Shown here one piece after another: positions 1,982 to 13,448 of a DNA stretch of 32,000 bases; position 1 is the stretch's first letter; the number at the start of each line of letters is the position of its first letter. The notes under the pieces were generated by a model. The model saw only the letters and a program-made list of their open reading frames with translations. It searched no databases and had not been told where the DNA came from. Origin of the DNA: Patescibacteria group bacterium. GTDB taxonomy: Bacteria > Patescibacteriota > UBA1384 > XYA2-FULL-43-10. The position numbers and the translations under genes are program-made. Location: positions 180,001 through 212,000 of the forward strand of contig JBAYVT010000001.1 of NCBI GenBank assembly GCA_041674405.1. The letters are read 5' to 3'.

Positions 1982-3880
1982 ATGGGTAAAATTATCGGAA
2001 TTGACTTGGGTACGACAAACTCTGCCGTTGCCGTAATGGAAGGCGGAGAAGCCAAAATTATTACGACTGCCGAAGGCGGGCGCACTTGTCCATCAATTGT
2101 CGCCGAGACTAAAAAAGGCGATCGCCTCGTTGGGCAACTGGCCAAAAGGCAGGCTGTGACCAATGCAGAAAACACGATTTTTTCAGTAAAGCGCTTCATC
2201 GGCCGCAATTTTGACGACAAGGAAGCACAGGCTGACCTTAAAAAAATGCCTTACAAAACAATGAAGGCCTCCGACGGTTCAATCCGCGTTGTCATGAATG
2301 GTAAGGAATATAGCCCGCAGGAAGTTTCAGCTTTTACCTTGCAAAAATTAAAGACAGATGCCGAAACATATCTTGGCGAGAAGGTCACAGACGCCGTAAT
2401 CACCGTCCCAGCCTACTTCAATGATGCACAAAGACAGGCTACCAAGGATGCGGGCAAAATCGCTGGTCTTGACGTGAAACGAATTATCAACGAACCTACT
2501 GCCGCTTCGCTTGCTTATGGCCTCGATAAGAAAAAAAATGAAAAGATCGCAGTTTATGATCTCGGTGGTGGAACTTTTGATATTACCATCCTTGAGCTCG
2601 GCGATGGCGTTTTCGAAGTCAAGGCGACCAATGGTGACACTCATCTCGGTGGTGATGACTTCGATCAACGCATCATGGACTTTATTATCGATGAGTTCAA
2701 AAAGGATCAGGGGATCGATCTTCACTCAGACACGGCTGCGCTTCAGCGTATAAAAGAAGCCGCAGAAAAAGCCAAAATTGAGCTTTCTTCGACAACCGAA
2801 ACTGAAATTAATCTGCCATTTATTACTGCCGATGCTTCCGGCCCGAAGCATCTGACGATGAATATTACCCGAGCCAAACTCGAAGATATCGTCGGCGAAT
2901 TAATCGAAGCAACTCTTAAGCCATGTGAAACTGTGATGAAAGACGCCGGCGTTACCGCCAAGGATATCAATGAAGTGATTCTTGTGGGTGGTATGACCAG
3001 GATGCCTAAGGTTCGCGAAACAGTGAAAAAGTTTTTTGACAAAGAGCCAAACCATTCCGTAAACCCGGACGAGGCTGTGGCAATCGGCGCTGCAATTCAA
3101 GGTGGAATCTTGGGCGGTGAGGTTAAGGACCTTCTTCTTCTCGATGTCACTCCCCTATCTCTCGGAATTGAAACACTCGGTGGCGTGATGACCAAGCTTA
3201 TAGACAAAAACACGACTATTCCGACTTCAAAATCACAGATTTTCTCAACAGCAGCAGACAACCAGACACAAGTTGATATCCATGTCCTTCAGGGCGAGCG
3301 CGAAATGGCTGCTGACAACCGCACGCTTGGCCGATTTGTCCTCGATGGCATTCCTCCAGCTCCACGAGGCATCCCGCAAGTTGAAGTCTCCTTTGACATT
3401 GATGCTAATGGCATAGTGAATGTGAAAGCAACGGATAAGGCCACTAACAAAGAGCAAAAAATTACAATCACCAGCTCCTCCGGCCTTTCCGACGAAGACA
3501 TCGAGAAAATGAAGAAGGATGCTGAACTTCACGCCGAAGAAGACAAGAAGAAAAAAGAACTTATTGATGCCAGAAATATGGCTGACAGCTTGATTTTCAC
3601 TGCCGAGAAGACTATCAAAGATGCCGGAGAAAAAGCTGACTCGAATCTAAAGAGCGACGTTGAGAGCAAGATTGAGGCCCTAAAGGGAGTAAAAGAGAGC
3701 GACAACACAGAAGAAATCAAGACTCAAACCGAATCACTATCAAAATCGCTTCAGGAACTGGGCGCAAAGATGTACGAACAGGCTGGACCGCAACAAGCCC
3801 CTGAAAAACCGGAAAATGAAAGTAAAGATGGTGCTAGCAAAGAGGAAAAGCCAGACGACAAGGGAGAAGAAAATAAATAA
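1982..3880 (+). CDS. dnaK: Molecular chaperone DnaK (Hsp70)
   Basis: 632 aa with hallmark motifs '[13 protein letters not shown]', 'DLGGGTFD' and '[11 protein letters not shown]', plus an acidic C-terminal lid/tail. SD GAAGGAGA lies just upstream of the ATG. Confidence 0.98.
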
Positions 3881-3896
3881 ATTTTGGCGAATTGGC

Positions 3897-3925
3897 CCCG
3901 ACCTTGCTGGTCGGGCCGATTCTTG
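3897..3925 (+). terminator. Candidate intrinsic terminator after dnaK
   Basis: Stem CCCGACC (3897-3903) / GGTCGGG (3909-3915) with loop ttgct, followed by a T-containing but weak tail (ccgattcttg). Confidence 0.45.
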
Positions 3926-3983
3926 ATAGAATTGCAATAAGCTAACAGCGATAAGTTAAGGATGTAAGCTTATAGGAGGGGCA

Positions 3984-4676
3984 ATGTTGGATATCTTCAA
4001 AAGGCCAATTACCGTCATTATCATTGTTGGGGCGATTGTGATCGCCCTTATCTGGTCATATGTTGACAAGAGAATTCAATCCAATAAGGAAGCTGCGGAA
4101 GCTAAAAAAATTACCGATGCCGCTCAGATCATTACCAATCTTACCAATATAGATCCCAAAGATTACGATGAATTAGTGAAGGCTGAATATCAGAAAGCAG
4201 TTACGAATGCGACAGCAGCTGATCCAAATAATGCATTTTCGGCGTTGGTGGTAGAATTGCCAGGCGACCTTGCCTTAAACTCGGGAAATGACAGATTTGT
4301 TTTTACTTCTCCGGACAATGCTGCAAATAACTGGACCATCACATTTTCTGAGCTTACCGGCAACTTTATTCGGGCAATAATTCCCAAAAGCGATTATTTA
4401 GGGGAACTGAAGCCGGTAAATACAAACCTATGGAAATTCCAATATGTGACGGCAATTCAAATTGCCGAACAAAATGGCGGAAAGACTTTTCGTGAAAACA
4501 ATTCTTTGACCGGAGTTACACTTACCCTGAAGCACGGAGACCCGAATAATTGGCTGGCATGGACAGTCGAATACAACAGCAAGGATAATAAATTTGTAAA
4601 ACAGGTTGATGCCAATTCCGGAAAAACGATTGATTCAATTTCAACTACCGGAGATCAAGCATCTTCTGTCCAGTAA
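3984..4676 (+). CDS. Membrane-anchored hypothetical protein with PepSY-like C-terminal region
   Basis: SD AGGAGG lies before the ATG. There is an N-terminal TM helix (ITVIIIVGAIVIALIW). The C-terminal pattern 'YVTAIQIAEQNGG...VTLTLKH...WTVEY...VDANSGKTI' resembles PepSY; this is a by-eye call. Confidence 0.7.
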   Translation: MLDIFKRPITVIIIVGAIVIALIWSYVDKRIQSNKEAAEAKKITDAAQIITNLTNIDPKDYDELVKAEYQKAVTNATAADPNNAFSALVVELPGDLALNSGNDRFVFTSPDNAANNWTITFSELTGNFIRAIIPKSDYLGELKPVNTNLWKFQYVTAIQIAEQNGGKTFRENNSLTGVTLTLKHGDPNNWLAWTVEYNSKDNKFVKQVDANSGKTIDSISTTGDQASSVQ

Positions 4677-4769
4677 TTCAAATCTCAAATTTCAAATCTC
4701 AAAAATAAGGAATTAAATATTTAAATATTTGAGATGAAATTTTGACTTTTGAAATTTAAGTTTTGAGAT
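4677..4769. repeat. Intergenic word repeats: 2x TTCAAATCTCAAA (direct) and 2x TTTGAGAT (inverted)
   Basis: Direct copies at 4677-4689 and 4691-4703. Inverted partial copies at 4728-4735 and 4762-4769; the last sits immediately 5' of the dnaJ-like start. The palindrome AATATTTAAATATT lies between them. Confidence 0.7.
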
Positions 4770-4774
4770 ATATC

Positions 4775-5437
4775 ATGTCCAAGGATTACTATAAAATTCT
4801 AGGAGTGGACAAGAGGGCTTCCGCCGACGAAATCAAAAAAACATATCGGAAGCTTGCTTTGGAATGTCATCCGGATCGAGGCGGAGGAGACAAAGCGGAA
4901 GAGAAATTCAAAGAACTGAACGAAGCTTATCAAGTTCTTTCGGATTCACAGAAACGGGCACAATACGATCAATTTGGCTCAACATTCGCAGGCGGACAGG
5001 GCAGCGGTGGATTTGGCGGTTTCGATTTTGGCGGATTCCAAGGGCAAGATTTCGGTGGATTCGGTCCCGAAGGGGCCCACTTTGGGGGCTTTGGCGGCGG
5101 CGGGCTTGGCGATATATTTGATGATTTCTTTGGTGCTGCTTTTTCATCCGTGTCTGCTGAGATTGAGATTGGCCCCGCGCAAGCTGTTCTCGGTGAAAAA
5201 ATTTCGATCAATGTTAGTGGTGAAAATATTGAACTAAATATCCCACCTGGCATTCAGGATGGAACTACTTTTCGGTTTCTTGGCAAGGGTCGCGCATACA
5301 ACAAGTCGGGTAAGAAAGGCGATCTCAATGTGATAGTGCACATAAAAATGCCTCAAAGAATCACACCGGAGCAAAAGGAGCTATGGGAGAAGCTTAAGGA
5401 AGCCGAATCAAAGAAGAAATCTTGGTGGCAACGCTAG
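4775..5437 (+). CDS. J-domain co-chaperone, DnaJ-like but lacking the zinc-finger domain
   Basis: J domain 'DYYKILGV...HPDRGGG' (HPD motif), a G/F-rich linker, and one C-terminal DnaJ-type segment ('[17 protein letters not shown]...[12 protein letters not shown]'). There are no CxxCxGxG repeats. ATG-4775 gives the canonical N-terminus; the track's TTG-4763 adds 4 aa. Confidence 0.88.
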
Positions 5438-5918: not shown

Positions 5919-7322
5919 TTATAATTTGTCAATTTTAGAACTGATTGAAGCAAAATAATCTTTGATATTTTGATAATTTAAGTTTTCTTTGACCTCATTC
6001 AGCAACACCCAAACAGGAATTTCGTCGGTTTCTTTTTCTCCAAGATCCACTTTCTCTGATCTAAAAAGAAACATTTTACAGGTGATTCCTTTCGGGTTCA
6101 TTTTATTTACATACTCGAAATCGGGCAGATCAGTTCCATCAGACACTACAACCCCGGTTTCTTCAAATATCTCTCTGATAGCCGCTTTCTTTTCATCTTC
6201 TCCAGGCTCTAAGTGGCCTTTTGGAAATGAAAACTCATTGTTGTGACGCGGCCGCTGGATCATCAGAACATATTTTTTGCCTTGGCGCTCCAACACAACT
6301 ATTCCGCCTGATTTTAGAGTGTGCCCTGCTGGATTTTTTACTTTATTTGGATGATTCAGCTCCGAAAGAATAACTTTTATTAATTCTTCTATACCTTTAT
6401 TAGCTGCGGCAGAAATCGGAATAGCAACCACGCTAATTTCTTCAAATTGCCCGATTTTTGACTTGATGTTTTCTGAAGATTCAACATCGGTTTTATTTAA
6501 TACAACAATTTCATTTTTGCTGCTTAAGTTTTTTGAAAATTCCTCAAGCTCCTTGCGAATTGTTTTGTAATCACGAATCACATCGTCACTCATCGAATCA
6601 ATCACATGCACAAGCAAATTGGTGCGCTCGATATGTTTTAGGAATCGATCGCCAAGCCCACGTCCAGCCGATGCTCCTTCAATCAAGCCAGGGATGTCGG
6701 CGACAATAACATTGCGATCTATACCCTTAATAACCCCTAGATTCGGCGTAAGCGTAGTAAAGGGATAGTCGGCAACTTTCGGCCTAGCATTGGAAATAAC
6801 CGATAAGAGAGTTGACTTACCAGCATTTGGAAGGCCGATGAGCCCTACATCTGCGATCATTTTAAGTTCCAGGTTTAAACGTTTTGATTCTCCGAATAAG
6901 CCCTTTTTTGACCATTTTGGAGCTTGTTTGATCGAGGTGGCAAAATGTACATTTCCCCAGCCGCCTTGCCCCCCACTTACTGCGACGTATGAACCGGCAT
7001 CACCCGCTAGATCAGCTACCAATTTATCATCTTCAAATATTTGTGTGCCTAGGGGCACATTCAATTTAAGATCATCGCCGTTTTTGCCGTGCATTTTTTT
7101 ACCCATTCCATTTTGGCCATTTTCCGCACTGAATTTTCTGATGCGGTTAAAATAAGACAGATCCGATGTGTGTGAATCGGCAGAGATGATGACACTGCCA
7201 CCATTTCCTCCATCTCCCCCATCGGGCCCACCTTTTGGAACATATTTTTCATGGCGAAAAGAGGCAGACCCATCTCCGCCATTGCCGGCTTTCACATAAA
7301 TTTTCGCTTCATCAAAAAACAT
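5919..7322 (-). CDS. obg: GTPase Obg/CgtA fused to a C-terminal Nudix hydrolase domain
   Basis: Glycine-rich Obg fold ('GGDGGNGGSV'), G1 'GLPNAGKST', G3 'DIPGLIEGA' and G4 'NKTD'. The C-terminal ~130 aa carry a perfect Nudix box 'GHLEPGEDEKKAAIREIFEETGV' (6150-6218). The canonical N-terminus MFFDEAKIY starts at ATG-7322; the track start at 7355 adds 11 aa. Confidence 0.92.
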   Translation of the reverse strand: MFFDEAKIYVKAGNGGDGSASFRHEKYVPKGGPDGGDGGNGGSVIISADSHTSDLSYFNRIRKFSAENGQNGMGKKMHGKNGDDLKLNVPLGTQIFEDDKLVADLAGDAGSYVAVSGGQGGWGNVHFATSIKQAPKWSKKGLFGESKRLNLELKMIADVGLIGLPNAGKSTLLSVISNARPKVADYPFTTLTPNLGVIKGIDRNVIVADIPGLIEGASAGRGLGDRFLKHIERTNLLVHVIDSMSDDVIRDYKTIRKELEEFSKNLSSKNEIVVLNKTDVESSENIKSKIGQFEEISVVAIPISAAANKGIEELIKVILSELNHPNKVKNPAGHTLKSGGIVVLERQGKKYVLMIQRPRHNNEFSFPKGHLEPGEDEKKAAIREIFEETGVVVSDGTDLPDFEYVNKMNPKGITCKMFLFRSEKVDLGEKETDEIPVWVLLNEVKENLNYQNIKDYFASISSKIDKL

Positions 7323-7327
7323 GACTT

Positions 7328-7432
7328 TCACAGAATGGTTATCACAGAATTTCACAGAATTGATTGCAGCATGGATTCATGAGATTCACAGAAATGATAT
7401 TTTTCTGTGTCTTTCTGTGTGATTTTTCTGTG
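7328..7432. repeat. Array of 7 copies of an 7-8 nt word in the obg leader (4x TCACAGAA, 3x TTCTGTG on the plus strand)
   Basis: TCACAGAA at 7328, 7342, 7352 and 7386. The inverted TTCTGTG at 7403, 7413 and 7426. On the obg (minus) strand this reads 3x CACAGAA followed by 4x TTCTGTGA. Confidence 0.8.
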
Positions 7433-7532: not shown

Positions 7533-8633
7533 CTAATATATGAATCCTCGAATCGCGCCTTCACCGGCAGATATTGTGCGGCGGCTGACTACACCCCATC
7601 CGGCATAATTCATCTCGGAAATCGTGAGTGAGTTTCCATTTACACTTTCGACATATGCAACATGTCCCCACCAAGATTCAGAGGTAACTACAATCGCGCC
7701 AACAGCCGGGGTTGAACCAGTAGACATTCCGCGTGATCGAGCCGAAGAAAGCCAGTTCTTGGCATTTCCCATGCTGGTCGGCATTGACCGGCGAGTTGCC
7801 ACATAATATGTGCAGTATCCATAAGGATAGCCGTTGTTTCGGCTGCCGGCTGGATGGCTAATCGAGGTTGTTTTACTTCTGCTTGAGCTCGAGGAACGAT
7901 TAACGGTGCTTCTGGAAGCTACGGCAAGCTTTGCCTGCTGAGCCGCATATGCGGAATCGGAAACCTCATAACCGGCTTGTGGAATTTTGATGGTTTGGCC
8001 AGGCTTAATAAGGTCGGAGCTACCCATATTGTTTACATATTTAATTGAAGCTAACCTAACACCAAATTTCCAGCCCAAACCAGTAAGTGTATCACCGGAT
8101 CGAACGGTATATTGCACAGATCCACTTGAGTTATCAGGCAAAGGTTCTTCTCGAGCAGTGATATTGGTATCAACGGTGGTTTTTACTTCTGTAAACGATT
8201 GGCTTGATGCCAAATACGCTTTTTCCACATTGACATGCCCGTCTGGAATCAGCGGCGTATATTGATCTACAGAAGCAGCTACAGCGATTTCTTGCTCCGG
8301 TTCAGCAGGAACAAGGGAATCGGAATTTTTTGCCCTTGCTTGCACCACAAAGTTTGAACCAACCACGATTAGAGTAAGAGCAGTTACAACAGCGTGCGGA
8401 AGATATTCCGAAATTATTCCGGTTTTCTGCATTTTTTTGAAAGCAGAAATATTCTGCCCACAAAAAATAGCAGTAGCCTTGTAACCGGTCGCTGCTAGCT
8501 TTTTGGCTTTCGCCAATTCGTCAAAATATTTATTTAAATGGTTTTTAGTTTTGGAAAGTTTTAAAGTAAAATTTTTGATTTTTGAGTTTCCGCTACGTTT
8601 ATGCGGCGGTTCTACGTCATCTTGTAAAATCAT
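7533..8633 (-). CDS. Peptidoglycan hydrolase with TM anchor, LysM domain and C-terminal CHAP domain
   Basis: LysM 'YTVRSGDTLTGLGWKFGVRLASIKYVNNM...IKPGQTIKIP'. CHAP-like C-terminus 'GYPYGYCTYYVATRR...GHVAYVESVNGN' (catalytic Cys/His pattern). SD AGGAAA lies before the ATG. Confidence 0.85.
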   Translation of the reverse strand: MILQDDVEPPHKRSGNSKIKNFTLKLSKTKNHLNKYFDELAKAKKLAATGYKATAIFCGQNISAFKKMQKTGIISEYLPHAVVTALTLIVVGSNFVVQARAKNSDSLVPAEPEQEIAVAASVDQYTPLIPDGHVNVEKAYLASSQSFTEVKTTVDTNITAREEPLPDNSSGSVQYTVRSGDTLTGLGWKFGVRLASIKYVNNMGSSDLIKPGQTIKIPQAGYEVSDSAYAAQQAKLAVASRSTVNRSSSSSRSKTTSISHPAGSRNNGYPYGYCTYYVATRRSMPTSMGNAKNWLSSARSRGMSTGSTPAVGAIVVTSESWWGHVAYVESVNGNSLTISEMNYAGWGVVSRRTISAGEGAIRGFIY

Positions 8634-9934: not shown

Positions 9935-10744
9935 CTACTTTCCACTCCTCAGAAGTGATCTTAAACGATTTTCTAGCCGGTCGCTGCCGATTCTTCTCTC
10001 AATCGCCCCATCCGCAGCAAGTGAAACATTGCCAGTTTCCTCCGACACAATTACAGATACCGCATCAGAATTTTCGGTTATTCCAAGACCAGCCCGATGT
10101 CTTGTTCCCATTTTTGATGATGCCTCAAAATCGGATACTGGCAGGGTAACCGATGCGGCAACTATTTTCGATCCGGAAATTATGACGGCTCCATCGTGCA
10201 GCGGGGATCGAGGAAAAAATATCGAAAGGAGTAACTCGGCGGATACTACGGCATCTAGCTCGGCCCCTCGTTCAATATATTCCCGAAGACCGGTTTTGCG
10301 CTGAAAAACGATCAAAGCGCCAATTTTTTGTTTGGACAAAATATCTACCGCCGCAAGAACTTCGTTCACTACATTAAGCTGTGTACCGCGGCCAAAATCT
10401 TTGATAAATCTGGTCCGGCCAAGCCGCTCAAGGGCGTTTCGAAGCTCGGGCTGGAAAACAATTGGAATTGCAACAACAAGCATCGCCATAATATATTGGA
10501 GAATCCAATTTAATAGTACCAGATTCATTAATCTGCCAATCAACATAAGAGCTAGGAGAAAAAATAGGCCATAGAGGATTCTCATCGCTCGCGTTTCTCG
10601 CAGAAAAATATAAGCCCAATAAAAAAGAACCGTCACTATAAACACATCGAGAATTATGAGAGGCCACGAAGTAGCATGGAGGTTCTCAAAAAAATAACTA
10701 GCCTTTGATGTAACACTTAGGACTTGACCAGACATTGAATCCAC
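9935..10744 (-). CDS. cdaA: Diadenylate cyclase CdaA (DisA_N/DAC domain, 3 TM helices)
   Basis: DAC motifs 'LHDGAVII' and 'GTRHRAGLGITENSDAVSVIVSEETGNVSLA', with three N-terminal TM helices. GTG start at 10744 with AGAGGGA 7 nt upstream; an alternative ATG is at 10735. Confidence 0.93.
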   Translation of the reverse strand: MDSMSGQVLSVTSKASYFFENLHATSWPLIILDVFIVTVLFYWAYIFLRETRAMRILYGLFFLLALMLIGRLMNLVLLNWILQYIMAMLVVAIPIVFQPELRNALERLGRTRFIKDFGRGTQLNVVNEVLAAVDILSKQKIGALIVFQRKTGLREYIERGAELDAVVSAELLLSIFFPRSPLHDGAVIISGSKIVAASVTLPVSDFEASSKMGTRHRAGLGITENSDAVSVIVSEETGNVSLAADGAIERRIGSDRLENRLRSLLRSGK

Positions 10745-10782
10745 TGAAAAATCCCTCTGTTGTAATAAATGAATACACTATC

Positions 10783-10810
10783 ATTTTACCACAAGCAGAA
10801 TTTGATGCAA
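10783..10810 (-). promoter_or_regulatory. Candidate cdaA promoter (extended -10)
   Basis: Minus strand: TTGCAT (10810->10805), 16-nt spacer ending in TGG, TAAAAT (10788->10783). It starts 13 nt after the 3' end of the ribozyme motif. Confidence 0.5.
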
Positions 10811-10823
10811 AAAATACGGGTAG

Positions 10824-10878
10824 ACCCCTTTCGTCGTAATTTTCAACGACTCATCAGAACACTTATGTGTTGAGGGGT
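10824..10878 (-). ncRNA. Type III hammerhead ribozyme motif
   Basis: Minus strand 5'-ACCCC UC^AACAC AUAA GUGUU CUGAUGA GUCGU UGAAAAUU ACGAC GAAA GGGGU-3'. Both conserved core strands are present, along with G10.1:C11.1, A15.1:U16.1 and an NUH triplet (CUC). There are three perfect helices: I and II are capped and III is open. Predicted cleavage is between 10872 and 10871. Confidence 0.8.
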
Positions 10879-10910
10879 GGACGAACAGCAAATGTCCGCC
10901 CCGGGCAGGC

Positions 10911-11402
10911 TTAGGCCTCCTCCATGACCTGAGCCAGAGTCAGAAACTCCTTGTCCCGACTAAACGACTCGAATCCCATCGGGACATCATTCTCCCGCCG
11001 CAGCTTAAGTACGCCGTGGCGTTCGAGAGCCACACCCATGGTGACGGCAAGGTCGCACAAGGCTACGGCATCTTCCCCCTTGCAAACCCCGAAGTCCACC
11101 ATGAAGCTTCTCGTGACCAGCTCACACAGCGTGAAGCAGCACTCCGTGCTTGGCTGGCCCCACTCTTCCAGTGTCGGCCTCGGATGTTCTGCCGCCGCCT
11201 CCGGCTTTTGCACCTTGTGGCGTGCTGCAAAATCATCGAGGATTCCGACAATCTTCTCCCAGTCTGCCACATCTTCCGCACGGGAAGATTCTTTCAGTGG
11301 CAGAAGTGAGAGATAGATACTTGCCAGCAGCCCCTCGAACTCTTCATACCTGAAGTCGGTGTGGGGCATCGTCCCGACATTCAGTTGGGCTTCTTCGCCC
11401 AT
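10911..11402 (-). CDS. Orphan acidic protein, 163 aa, 5 Cys, no recognisable family
   Basis: ORF track 10911..11423. I prefer ATG-11402 because AAGGAG (11417->11412) lies 9 nt upstream. It is the longest ORF in the island, its composition is protein-like (E/L/A/D-rich), and G/C-ending codons (for example CTG Leu) contrast with neighbouring genes. Confidence 0.7.
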   Translation of the reverse strand: MGEEAQLNVGTMPHTDFRYEEFEGLLASIYLSLLPLKESSRAEDVADWEKIVGILDDFAARHKVQKPEAAAEHPRPTLEEWGQPSTECCFTLCELVTRSFMVDFGVCKGEDAVALCDLAVTMGVALERHGVLKLRRENDVPMGFESFSRDKEFLTLAQVMEEA

Positions 11403-11439
11403 TGGGCACCACTCCTTTATCACTCGAGTTTCGCACTAG

Positions 11440-11468
11440 ACAATACAAGATTTATCCTTTAATGTCAA
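11440..11468 (-). promoter_or_regulatory. Near-consensus promoter driving the GC-rich ORF
   Basis: Minus strand: TTGACA (11468->11463), 17-nt spacer, TATTGT (11445->11440). The predicted 5' UTR is about 30 nt and contains the SD. Confidence 0.55.
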
Positions 11469-11493
11469 GGATCAATCAGTAATTCAGACTAAT

Positions 11494-11521
11494 AAAAAAG
11501 ATCGAGAACTCGATCTTTTTT
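11494..11521 (-). terminator. Intrinsic terminator of infB (bidirectional form)
   Basis: AAAAAAGATCG-agaact-CGATCTTTTTT lies 26 nt downstream of the infB stop, with A/T runs on both sides. Confidence 0.75.
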
Positions 11522-11546
11522 ATTATTTCCGAAAAGATATTATTTG

Positions 11547-13448
11547 TTATTCTATCGTTCTGGGTTTTTCGATAGTTTTGAAAATGATAATTTTATCACC
11601 TACAGCAATCTTTGCTCCGGCATCCGCACCAAATCCAAACTCAATTCCGGCATCAACTTCTTTAACCTCGTCCTTTTCTCTTCGCAATGAGAGAATTTTT
11701 CCTCGCCACTTTTCATTGTCATTTTGGAAAACCTTGATTTCATTTCCAATGGCAGCTTTTCCACCATCAAGCCTTGCGCCAGCAACTACACCTTTCTTGT
11801 CATCACGGAATATTGCCAAAATCTCGCCGCCTCCAAGCTCATCTTCAATAATTTCTGGAGGAAGCATACCAGAAAGTGCCCCCTTAACATCTTCAATAAG
11901 TTTATAAATAACATCATACAGCTCTACTGGGATCTTTTCTTTTTCAGCAATTTTTAGAGCTGCCTGAAGCACTTTGACTCGAAAACCAATAATGATTGCT
12001 TTGGTCGCCTTAGCAAATGTAATATCTGATTCTGAAATCGTGCCAATTCCTTCGGATACGACATTCATTTTAATTTCTTGGGTATCGATTTCGTTAAATG
12101 ACTTCTTGATTGCTTGTAGCGATCCGTTTACATCTGCCTTTAGAACAATGTTTAATTCCTTGGATTTTCCAGTGGCAATATCGTCCGCCACCTCCTCAAT
12201 TCCAACTTTTTGTGCCGTAGCAACATGAGCAATACTTATGCTTTCTTTGATCTGCGATGCTGCTTCCCTTGCTTCTTTTTCATTGTCGTAAGCAATTAAT
12301 TTGTCACCAAAAGTCGGCAATGATTTTAATCCGGCAACTCGGGCTGGAAAGCTTGGTGGAGCTGATTTGATTGGCCTTCCTTGATAATCTTCCAATATTC
12401 TAACCTTACCCCATGACGAGCCTATCTGGACGGGATCACCGACTTTCAAGGTACCATTTTCGATAAGCGCAAGCGCCAGTGCTCCGGCTCCTTTATGCAT
12501 ATGTGATTCGATAACCACTCCGACAGCCTTGTCAGAAGGATTAGCTTTTAGTTCCATAAGATCAGCTTGCAGTAAAATAAGCTCAAGTAAATTATCAATG
12601 CCAATGCCAGTTTTCGCTGAAACCTCTACCATCGGTGTTTTACCGCCCCATTCCTCTGGAACAAGTTCATATTCGGAGAGCTGTTGTTTAACTTTCATTA
12701 CATCAGCATCAGGCAGGTCAATCTTATTGATGGCGACAATCACCGGCACATGATGAAGCTTGATTTGTTCGATCACTTCCTGCGTTTGCGGCATAACTCC
12801 GTCGTTGGCCGCAACAATAAGAACGACTATGTCCGTAATTGCCGCTCCATGGCTTCGAAGGGCCGAAAAGGCTGCATGTCCAGGAGTGTCAATAAATGTG
12901 ATAGTGCGATTTTTAATGCCACTTTTTACCTTGTTTAGCGTGACTTGATAAGCAGAAATGTGCTGGGTAATTCCGCCTGATTCACCCTCGGCGACATGTG
13001 CCTCTCGGATTTTATCCAAAAGTGAAGTCTTGCCATGATCGACATGTCCCATAATAGTTACGACTGGTGGGCGAATTTCGGATCCCTCGGATGAGATTTC
13101 AATCTTTGCCTTTTCTTGCGATTCTACCGGGTTTTCTTCTTCCTTTTCCTTCACACTGATTCCAAGATCATCCGCAATGATAGCCGCTGTTTCAAAATCA
13201 ATTGTTTGGTTAATATTGGCCAATATGCCGTTTTTCATCAGTTCAGAAATAATGCTAGTTACAGGCAAGCCGGTTACGACGGCAAAATCTTTAACCGTAA
13301 TGACCGCAGGAATTAATATTTCTCCCCTACTCTCCCTAGTGGCTGTTTCCTGCATTTCAGGAATATTATTTTGGGTAGCAAAAGAGCGGCGATTCTGCGC
13401 CCGCTTTTTTTTGTCGCTCTTTTTTTGTGGATATCGTTTCTTTTGCAT
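11547..13448 (-). CDS. infB: Translation initiation factor IF-2
   Basis: 633 aa with a basic N-terminus, a GTPase domain 'GHVDHGKTSLLD', 'DTPGH' and 'NKID', and the C-terminal IF-2 domains. Confidence 0.97.
   Translation of the reverse strand: MQKKRYPQKKSDKKKRAQNRRSFATQNNIPEMQETATRESRGEILIPAVITVKDFAVVTGLPVTSIISELMKNGILANINQTIDFETAAIIADDLGISVKEKEEENPVESQEKAKIEISSEGSEIRPPVVTIMGHVDHGKTSLLDKIREAHVAEGESGGITQHISAYQVTLNKVKSGIKNRTITFIDTPGHAAFSALRSHGAAITDIVVLIVAANDGVMPQTQEVIEQIKLHHVPVIVAINKIDLPDADVMKVKQQLSEYELVPEEWGGKTPMVEVSAKTGIGIDNLLELILLQADLMELKANPSDKAVGVVIESHMHKGAGALALALIENGTLKVGDPVQIGSSWGKVRILEDYQGRPIKSAPPSFPARVAGLKSLPTFGDKLIAYDNEKEAREAASQIKESISIAHVATAQKVGIEEVADDIATGKSKELNIVLKADVNGSLQAIKKSFNEIDTQEIKMNVVSEGIGTISESDITFAKATKAIIIGFRVKVLQAALKIAEKEKIPVELYDVIYKLIEDVKGALSGMLPPEIIEDELGGGEILAIFRDDKKGVVAGARLDGGKAAIGNEIKVFQNDNEKWRGKILSLRREKDEVKEVDAGIEFGFGADAGAKIAVGDKIIIFKTIEKPRTIE

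Follow-up and report, generated by a model that had tools for sequence, protein, structure and literature searches.

A type III hammerhead ribozyme, abutted by a conserved hairpin, downstream of a horizontally acquired gene in Patescibacteria

The discontinuous hammerhead of mammalian CLEC2 genes is a self-cleaving ribozyme located in a 3′ untranslated region (3′-UTR). Ribozymes in this position can influence expression, as engineered 3′-UTR twister constructs do (PMC6765202). For hammerheads next to variable genes, a role in mRNA processing has been proposed, with examples in Clostridium scindens, at ardA of Agrobacterium tumefaciens and in Azorhizobium caulinodans (Perreault et al. 2011, PMC3088659), whereas for the majority of bacterial hammerheads the function has yet to be settled (PMC6765202). 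No paper that connects hammerheads with Patescibacteria, the candidate phyla radiation (CPR) or Saccharibacteria came up in a literature search. The present study deals with a hammerhead motif on the minus strand of a 32-kb stretch of Patescibacteria DNA (contig JBAYVT010000001.1, positions 180,001 to 212,000; hereafter the window, whose positions are used throughout), where it follows a GC-rich open reading frame (ORF) lying between infB and cdaA. The motif is a genuine type III hammerhead with all the sequence-level defining features of this class, and it is probably active as a ribozyme. We think it rather likely that an active type III hammerhead forms the 3′ end of a horizontally acquired transcription unit here, insulating this unit from the neighbouring operon.

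Read on the minus strand from 10878 to 10824, the motif is ACCCC-UC^AACAC-AUAA-GUGUU-CUGAUGA-GUCGU-UGAAAAUU-ACGAC-GAAA-GGGGU, with all invariant hammerhead positions intact and 16 base pairs complete (Table 1). The cleavage-site triplet is CUC with C17 at C10872, so the NUH rule is satisfied (nucleotide 17 is not G). Loops close helices I and II, and the 5′ and 3′ ends both lie in helix III, which is the type III topology. Hammerhead numbering fixes the position of the scissile bond relative to the core. The predicted 5′ product would end in ...CCCCUC with a 2′,3′-cyclic phosphate, and the 3′ product would start with 5′-OH-AACAC. The minimum free energy structure given by RNAfold for 10885-10815 is the three-way junction. 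Loop 2 recurs in prokaryotic and phage copies by the hundreds, and loop 1 is rich in A and U, a combination compatible with the tertiary contact between loop/helix I and loop/helix II on which hammerheads rely to cleave fast at physiological Mg2+. An earlier note on this DNA, made from the letters alone, had described the motif as a complete type III hammerhead read on the minus strand, which is the coding strand of the ORF, and its sequence and coordinates proved exact to the base. Further statements in it also held: the motif starts 32 nt past the ORF stop codon TAA (10913-10911), the predicted scission after C10872 agrees with the RF00008 alignment, and the other CUGAUGA heptamers of the window have no comparable helices, the covariance model of the family described below finding no second copy in the window.

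At this site RF00008 (Hammerhead_3) is the top-scoring model of the hammerhead clan CL00010. It matches over its full length (1-54/54) with 45.3 bits and an E value of 1.9e-8 (1.1 kb searched, E-value threshold), and the Rfam search found no other ribozyme family within 10600-11700. The window copy shares with the RF00008 type III hammerheads the same catalytic core (C3-A9, G12-A14, A15.1:U16.1, C17) and an open helix III, and its loop 2 resembles the model consensus (UGAaA..uA). A chance resemblance with no ribozyme function could draw on the score, which is under the Rfam gathering cut-off, and on the bare core: CUGAUGA..GAAA occurs 2 times in the window against 1.27 expected, which is not significant. 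However, such coincidence fits poorly with the E value and with a deliberately permissive descriptor, for which 4 bp per helix sufficed and G-U pairs counted: it had one match in the window and one in a set of 3000 random 32-kb Markov-1 sequences of the same dinucleotide make-up. The related loci presented below refute it, and we give it practically no credence.

Relatives of the window copy were collected with two patterns. The first, built on the helix II and loop 2 of the window (CTGATGAGTCNNTGAAAN{3,9}GACGAAA), was run broadly over GTDB genomes and IMG/VR; it matched 97 stretches in the former and at least 120 in the latter, where chance was estimated to give ~0.5. The helix II/loop 2 string GUCNNUGAAA..GAC is common to the window and to hundreds of Firmicutes, archaeal and phage hammerheads. 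In prokaryotic genomes, 58 of these hammerheads were of type I and 32 of type III; the phage contigs had 103 and 9, respectively, among the matches listed. Type III is therefore an ordinary hammerhead topology among prokaryotes, common in bacteria and phages alike, and the view of the earlier note that bacterial hammerheads are mostly type II, which would make a type III copy unusual, has to be given up. One of the Firmicutes stretches (L080 2095-5616, Firmicutes bacterium CAG:95) carries 3 type III hammerheads on one strand, 1-2.5 kb apart, each preceded by the identical short motif GTCCTGAGCAAGACGTTAAACTGC; it resembles the triple arrangements of Clostridium scindens.

A tight group of matches, near-identical to the window copy, came from Saccharibacteria, Berkelbacteria and ‘Patescibacteria group’ bins, one Berkelbacteria genome carrying 5 copies. 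The second pattern, CCCTCN{12,20}CTGATGAGTCN{10,16}GACGAAAGGG, leaves helix I and the inner helix II free; it added 23 metagenome stretches, 0 of them from IMG/VR. With duplicates removed, the family consists of the window copy and at least 25 further distinct hairpin-bearing loci from CPR genome bins and untyped metagenome contigs. Two more type III hammerheads that match the patterns (L094 and L247) have neither the hairpin nor a GC-rich ORF and stand outside the family. A phage origin was considered and rejected: two subfamily-specific patterns had 0 matches in IMG/VR, and PADLOC had no match for the ORF family.

The alignment of 28 sequences (26 family loci with L094 and L247) has an invariant core. 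It has 91.6% of its cells paired and 7 pairs changed on both sides, and 0 of 500 shuffles reached as high. Specifically, inner helix II pairs switch between G:C and C:G in 8 sequences and between U:A and C:G in 6, and helix I has A:U to U:A switches as well as wholly different helices; the pairs of helix III are invariant within the family and hence uninformative for covariation. The RNAalifold consensus arrived independently at the same three-way junction. Under the family covariance model the window copy reaches 78.5 bits (E 2.6e-18), and just one of the 40 matches scores higher. The check for conservation and covariation in related loci, which the earlier note had proposed, thus favours the ribozyme, with 25 further loci and compensatory changes in helices I and II.

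What sets this family apart from other RF00008 members is a helix III made of the A:U pair and three G:C pairs only (in the window it has 6 bp), an extra hairpin that abuts this helix in every case, and Patescibacteria as hosts. We define the CPR hairpin-hammerhead subfamily by a short helix III (CCC/GGG plus U:A) preceded at 0-3 nt by a stable hairpin, a helix I resembling AACA(C)/(G)UGUU, and, upstream, a GC-rich ORF driven by a promoter of its own; the window copy belongs to it on its hairpin, family-model score, upstream GC and promoter. The family is a previously unannotated CPR subfamily of a known ribozyme class, and its architecture, so far undescribed, is the new part.

In the minimum free energy fold of the precursor, the hairpin of the window abuts the first pair of the 6-bp helix III with zero gap. 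A stable GC-rich hairpin of 8-13 pairs lies 0-3 nt before helix III in all 25 testable family members (25/25). Since the hairpin sequences are unrelated across the family, it is the structure and not the sequence that is conserved. The 34 nt before CCCUC have a mean folding energy of −16.9 kcal/mol, compared with −6.5 kcal/mol for other segments of the upstream 400 nt, and the hairpin is the most stable segment of these 400 nt in 18 of 25 loci. With −12.8 kcal/mol, the window hairpin is less marked, ranking near the 5th percentile of its local background. The arrangement extends beyond CPR, since roughly 8 of 30 unrelated type III hammerheads with the same helix II/loop 2, most of them phage-borne, likewise carry a strong hairpin that runs right up to helix III; examples are L108, L127, L133, L168 and L198 from IMG/VR and L062 and L106 from genomes. 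The cleaved 5′ product of the window can refold, GGGG (10902-10899) capturing CCCC (10877-10874) and extending the hairpin. Such refolding as a ‘product trap’ was dropped as a family feature, being found in just 8 of 26 members.

The order of elements is common to the family: a consensus promoter, a GC-rich gene, the hairpin and the hammerhead. Each upstream block holds one ORF with a near-consensus sigma-70 promoter before it. The upstream 500 nt have a GC content of 0.45-0.65 against 0.37-0.54 for the locus (0.58 against 0.41 in the window), and the upstream ORFs typically have 0.51-0.63, with one at 0.44. The genes before a family hammerhead usually exceed the host DNA by 5-20 GC points (for L236, L238 and L244, 0.62-0.63 against 0.45-0.50), and a common, GC-richer donor pool is one possible cause of this enrichment. 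The cargo ORFs of the members are not homologous to one another. Pfam found no domain in 8 of 10 cargo ORFs, one histidine phosphatase and one cupin. One family locus, L235, also has a LOOT RNA (RF03000, 73.9 bits, above its gathering score) at 7581-7698 on the minus strand, ~300 nt downstream of the hammerhead at 7218-7272 and on the opposite strand.

The cargo of the window is its most GC-rich part, at 0.57-0.61 against 0.41 for the whole, more than 4 standard deviations above the mean of the 32 kb. Its product is 100% identical to ‘hypothetical protein WC080_01070 [Patescibacteria group bacterium]’. The earlier note had called the ORF an orphan, which does not stand, as six homologue clusters (47-59% identity) occur in other CPR assemblies, with the invariant motifs MPxTDFxYExFEG, VQKP and SFxxDFGV. 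The product is a conserved, CPR-restricted protein. An AlphaFold2 model computed from the family of 7 sequences is very confident (predicted local distance difference test score, pLDDT, 93.3) and shows a helical bundle with a beta-hairpin. Foldseek with this model against the PDB gave no match with E < 1 (best E about 1), the ORF sequence had no match among PDB chains, and Pfam gave sub-threshold matches only (PA2201_N, 18.3 bits against a cut-off of 27); the protein may have an uncharacterised CPR-restricted fold. The homologue loci (L001-L010) have other contexts: they hold ordinary chromosomal genes with ordinary terminators and are not GC-enriched. Co-conservation of ORF and ribozyme was tried as an explanation and rejected, because these loci have no ribozyme; the ribozyme is thus tied to the cassette rather than to the gene family.

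On the minus strand, the elements follow one another as infB, terminator, promoter, Shine-Dalgarno sequence, ORF, hairpin, hammerhead, U-run, promoter-like site, cdaA-ybbR and a LysM-CHAP gene (Table 1). The closest relatives, with CdaA 84% identical, have a 200-nt AT-rich spacer between infB and cdaA with no ORF and no ribozyme. The window unit is thus an insertion between infB and cdaA. It was horizontally acquired as a self-contained transcription unit, running from the promoter (11468-11440) through the hammerhead (10878-10824). An attempt to place the boundaries of the insertion to the nucleotide failed, because the spacers of the relatives are too diverged to align. Two other relatives have different inserts at the infB-cdaA site, none with a hammerhead; L253 has an ORF of the 23S_rRNA_IVP family (893-1267) in this spacer and L254 two unannotated ORFs (3664-4914), and the site looks like an insertion hotspot.

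Under our preferred reading, transcription from the promoter of the unit would pass through the gene, the hairpin and the ribozyme, the hairpin failing to terminate because it has no U-tract. The ribozyme would fold, with the hairpin stacking end-on against the short helix III, and the RNA would be cut between C10872 and A10871. The mRNA would be left with a stable hairpin ~7 nt from its 2′,3′-cyclic-phosphate end, which is the same kind of 3′ end as an intrinsic terminator makes, and the ribozyme body would be kept by the RNA past the cut, either a short tail or a cdaA transcript made by read-through, whose first nucleotide would carry a 5′-OH. As cleavage would make a hairpin-capped end, the ribozyme would define the 3′ end of the foreign mRNA and insulate it from cdaA. 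We infer from sequence features the catalysis in vivo, the coaxial stacking and an effect on mRNA stability or expression.

The parallel with an intrinsic terminator is that a GC-rich hairpin soon past the stop codon would come to lie at the 3′ terminus of the message. In contrast to a terminator, the proposed 3′ end would arise by self-cleavage after the polymerase has passed, and it would carry a cyclic phosphate and CCCUC with no U-tail. Like CLEC2 and the twister constructs, the window ribozyme lies downstream of a stop codon, where cleavage would detach the 3′ part of the message. However, those 3′-UTR ribozymes lower expression by removing a poly(A) tail or a stabiliser, whereas the window keeps a conserved hairpin upstream of the cut, which suggests a protected end. 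The gene-flanking and prophage hammerheads of Perreault et al. likewise adjoin foreign genes of inconstant identity, and mRNA processing was proposed for them. Their prophage arrays have several ribozymes in a polycistronic transcript, whereas the window has just one, placed 3′ of the only gene in a unit that brings its own promoter; furthermore, the 32-kb window has no integrase or phage genes and the subfamily is absent from IMG/VR.

Several observations weigh against our reading. The RF00008 score of 45.3 bits is 3.2 below the curated gathering score of 48.5, and the default Rfam scan of the window reported nothing, since the score is under this cut-off. The energy of the fold alone is unexceptional (z = −1.6). 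No hammerhead or other ribozyme was found near the six homologue clusters of the ORF (L001-L010), which manage without one, so the ribozyme is not required by this gene family. The terminator parallel draws on the Berkelbacteria cassette array described below, where a hairpin and U-tract take the hammerhead position in just 2 of 6 neighbouring hammerhead-less cassettes. A search of the window with an nhmmer profile of the module that follows most family members gave no match, and a strong terminator is likewise missing there, so that the window copy could be a truncated one. We infer catalytic activity from sequence, and a cyclic phosphate together with the lost U-tail could destabilise the mRNA instead of stabilising it. 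With regard to the score, the gathering value is an annotation threshold, which bears on automatic annotation and not on hammerhead identity. None of 20 related loci scanned reaches it, and every subfamily member tested falls short as the window does. Thus, of the threshold check proposed in the earlier note, the preference for the type III model within the clan held and the cut-off was not reached; given the E value of 1.9e-8 and the 78.5 bits under the family model, this is no refutation.

In 20 of 26 family members the hammerhead is followed by an A-rich linker and then by a repeated module of ~100 nt (‘GTTCTAAC...’) with a strong terminator downstream; in most members a strong terminator lies within 60-110 nt of the ribozyme. 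The module (95-120 nt) is laid out as ACAAAAAGTTCTAAC, a pyrimidine-rich stretch, GCTRT..CGCCA, a terminator hairpin and GGCAGACCGGATGTAGAAC. Its outer parts, GTTCTA...TAGAAC, are inverted repeats, and it is also present without hammerheads. Two adjacent 8-kb pieces from Berkelbacteria (L028 2224-7510 and L069 1-2700, CAINNR010000032.1) hold an array of ~9 cassettes, each of 600-1000 bp, of variable GC and ended by the module. Beside this array lies a gene for a radical-SAM/SPASM-type protein (CxxxCxxC; L028 1-1300, minus strand). Further loci with the module are L249, L245, L232, L057/L250, L228, L244 and L093. The module might be an attC-like site, a miniature inverted-repeat transposable element or a small RNA. 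A reading as an integron attC or tRNA-derived att site was tried without a clear fit: the outer repeats do not agree cleanly with the RYYYAAC/GTTRRRY cores, and no integrase was seen in the DNA examined.

These downstream parts bring up the possibility that the hammerhead is a hitch-hiking relic. It would serve a mobile cassette, in transfer or in processing of the ~100-nt module, and be a leftover in the window, whether or not it can still cleave, with no role for host or gene. The window copy has no such module after it, and the ORF has homologues elsewhere with no ribozyme; moreover, the cargo genes are mutually unrelated, which implies that the ribozyme travels with the vehicle and not with the gene. 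However, decay would be expected of a neutral relic in a genome so streamlined and AT-rich, whereas the window copy has its core nucleotides, all 16 base pairs and the accessory hairpin intact and ranks second among the 40 family-model matches. We therefore consider a relic rather unlikely.

A wider proposal would place the window copy in a system of gene cassettes that are autonomous, exchangeable and spread across CPR. Each cassette would be composed of a strong promoter, a gene that is GC-rich and mostly an orphan, and a hairpin with a type III hammerhead that replaces the intrinsic terminator. In such a system the GTTCTA...TAGAAC module may be a recombination site, and cassettes would stand singly at hotspots such as infB-cdaA or in arrays such as that of Berkelbacteria bin-4476 (~9 cassettes in 10 kb). 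This proposal is speculative and in our judgement unlikely. If true, it would be a new cassette-exchange system in Patescibacteria and would give bacterial hammerheads a defined job, the making of mRNA 3′ ends.

In the window, only GUCUACCCGUAUUUUUU follows the ribozyme, and the 3′ tail CUACCCGUAUUUUUUG is possibly a weak terminator. The terminator scan, at its threshold, found none between the ribozyme and cdaA, just a 3-bp hairpin with a U-run. This stretch bears on the idea that the hammerhead acts for cdaA, as an operon insulator or maker of its 5′ end: read-through RNA would receive a 5′-OH capped by the ribozyme body, which would alter the stability or translation of the cdaA mRNA. The absence of a terminator at the scan threshold, the common strand of all the genes and the type III topology, which keeps the ribozyme body on the 3′ product, are all in its favour. 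Nevertheless, cdaA has a promoter-like site of its own at 10811-10783, in relatives that lack the cassette cdaA is expressed from a comparable spacer, and the strong terminator 60-110 nt past the ribozyme in most family members implies that read-through is not the general design. A role mainly for cdaA appears unlikely.

The earlier note had also alluded to viroid-like RNAs and Obelisks. An element of this kind, retrozyme-, viroid- or Obelisk-like, would use the hammerhead to excise and circularise an RNA bearing the ORF. Plant retrozymes and viroid-like RNAs do use the type III topology, and tandem copies ~800-1350 nt apart occur at two other loci (L069, L249). However, these tandem units have their own terminator and promoter between the ribozymes. 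Obelisks are recognised by having no chromosomal DNA copy, and circular RNAs are bounded by two ribozyme copies or come from a multimeric template. The type III topology is the only feature that the window element shares with such RNAs; it is encoded in DNA between chromosomal housekeeping genes, in single copy, and its ORF family is also found as ordinary chromosomal genes. With a single hammerhead in the window, no unit-length RNA could be excised. With no second ribozyme and no flanking repeats around the ORF, this reading was rejected for the window and is very improbable, and the allusion does not carry over.

Table 1. Positions of the hammerhead, its parts and the neighbouring elements in the window.
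Feature	Position	Strand	Basis or detail
Type III hammerhead ribozyme	10824..10878	-	Sequence, RF00008 match, fold, family alignment and model, random-sequence descriptor test
Helix III	10878-10873 / 10829-10824	-	6 bp including A15.1(10829):U16.1(10873); open
Helix I	10871-10867 / 10862-10858	-	5 perfect pairs; loop AUAA
Core CUGAUGA (C3-A9)	10857-10851	-	Sequence
Helix II	10850-10846 / 10837-10833	-	5 perfect pairs; G10.1(10850):C11.1(10833); loop UGAAAAUU
GAAA	10832-10829	-	G12-A14 = 10832-10830
Predicted scissile bond, C17 (10872) / A1.1 (10871)	10871..10872	-	Hammerhead numbering applied to the RF00008 alignment
Accessory hairpin	10879..10901	-	GGGCGGACA / UGUUCGUCC, 9 bp (two G-U), loop UUUGC; precursor minimum free energy fold
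3′ tail CUACCCGUAUUUUUUG	10808..10823	-	Weak GGG/CCC hairpin and U-run (10814-10809) in the fold of the 3′ product; overlaps −35 of the cdaA promoter-like site
GC-rich gene, 163 aa	10911..11402	-	ATG 11402, TAA 10913-10911; alternative GTG 11423 gives 170 aa
infB stop codon	11549-11547	-	
infB terminator (presumed), intrinsic (bidirectional)	11490..11525		Perfect 17-nt inverted repeat, 100% complementary, A/T-run flanks
Sigma-70-type promoter (putative)	11440..11468	-	TTGACA (11468-11463), 17 nt, TATTGT (11445-11440); 10/12 consensus
Shine-Dalgarno AAGGAG	11412..11417	-	9 nt before ATG 11402
Promoter-like site for cdaA	10811-10783	-	Consensus scan

The remaining neighbours in the window are housekeeping genes, namely dnaK, dnaJ, obg, gyrA and gyrB. 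The obg gene (5919-7355, minus strand) encodes an Obg GTPase fused to a C-terminal NUDIX domain; in the relatives L251 and L254, Obg has ~322-325 aa and no NUDIX extension.

For the window itself the consequence is modest: one foreign gene with a putatively self-cleaving 3′-UTR, adjoining the operon of the cyclic di-AMP synthase. For the family it reaches further. An entire clade in Patescibacteria escapes the type III model of Rfam by a margin of a few bits, and GC-rich islands ending in the motif mark recently acquired genes in these genomes. The layout of the subfamily, with its own promoter, one gene, a conserved hairpin and a ribozyme, turns ‘mRNA processing’ into a concrete hypothesis, in which a hairpin-capped mRNA 3′ end made by a ribozyme would be an alternative to a terminator.

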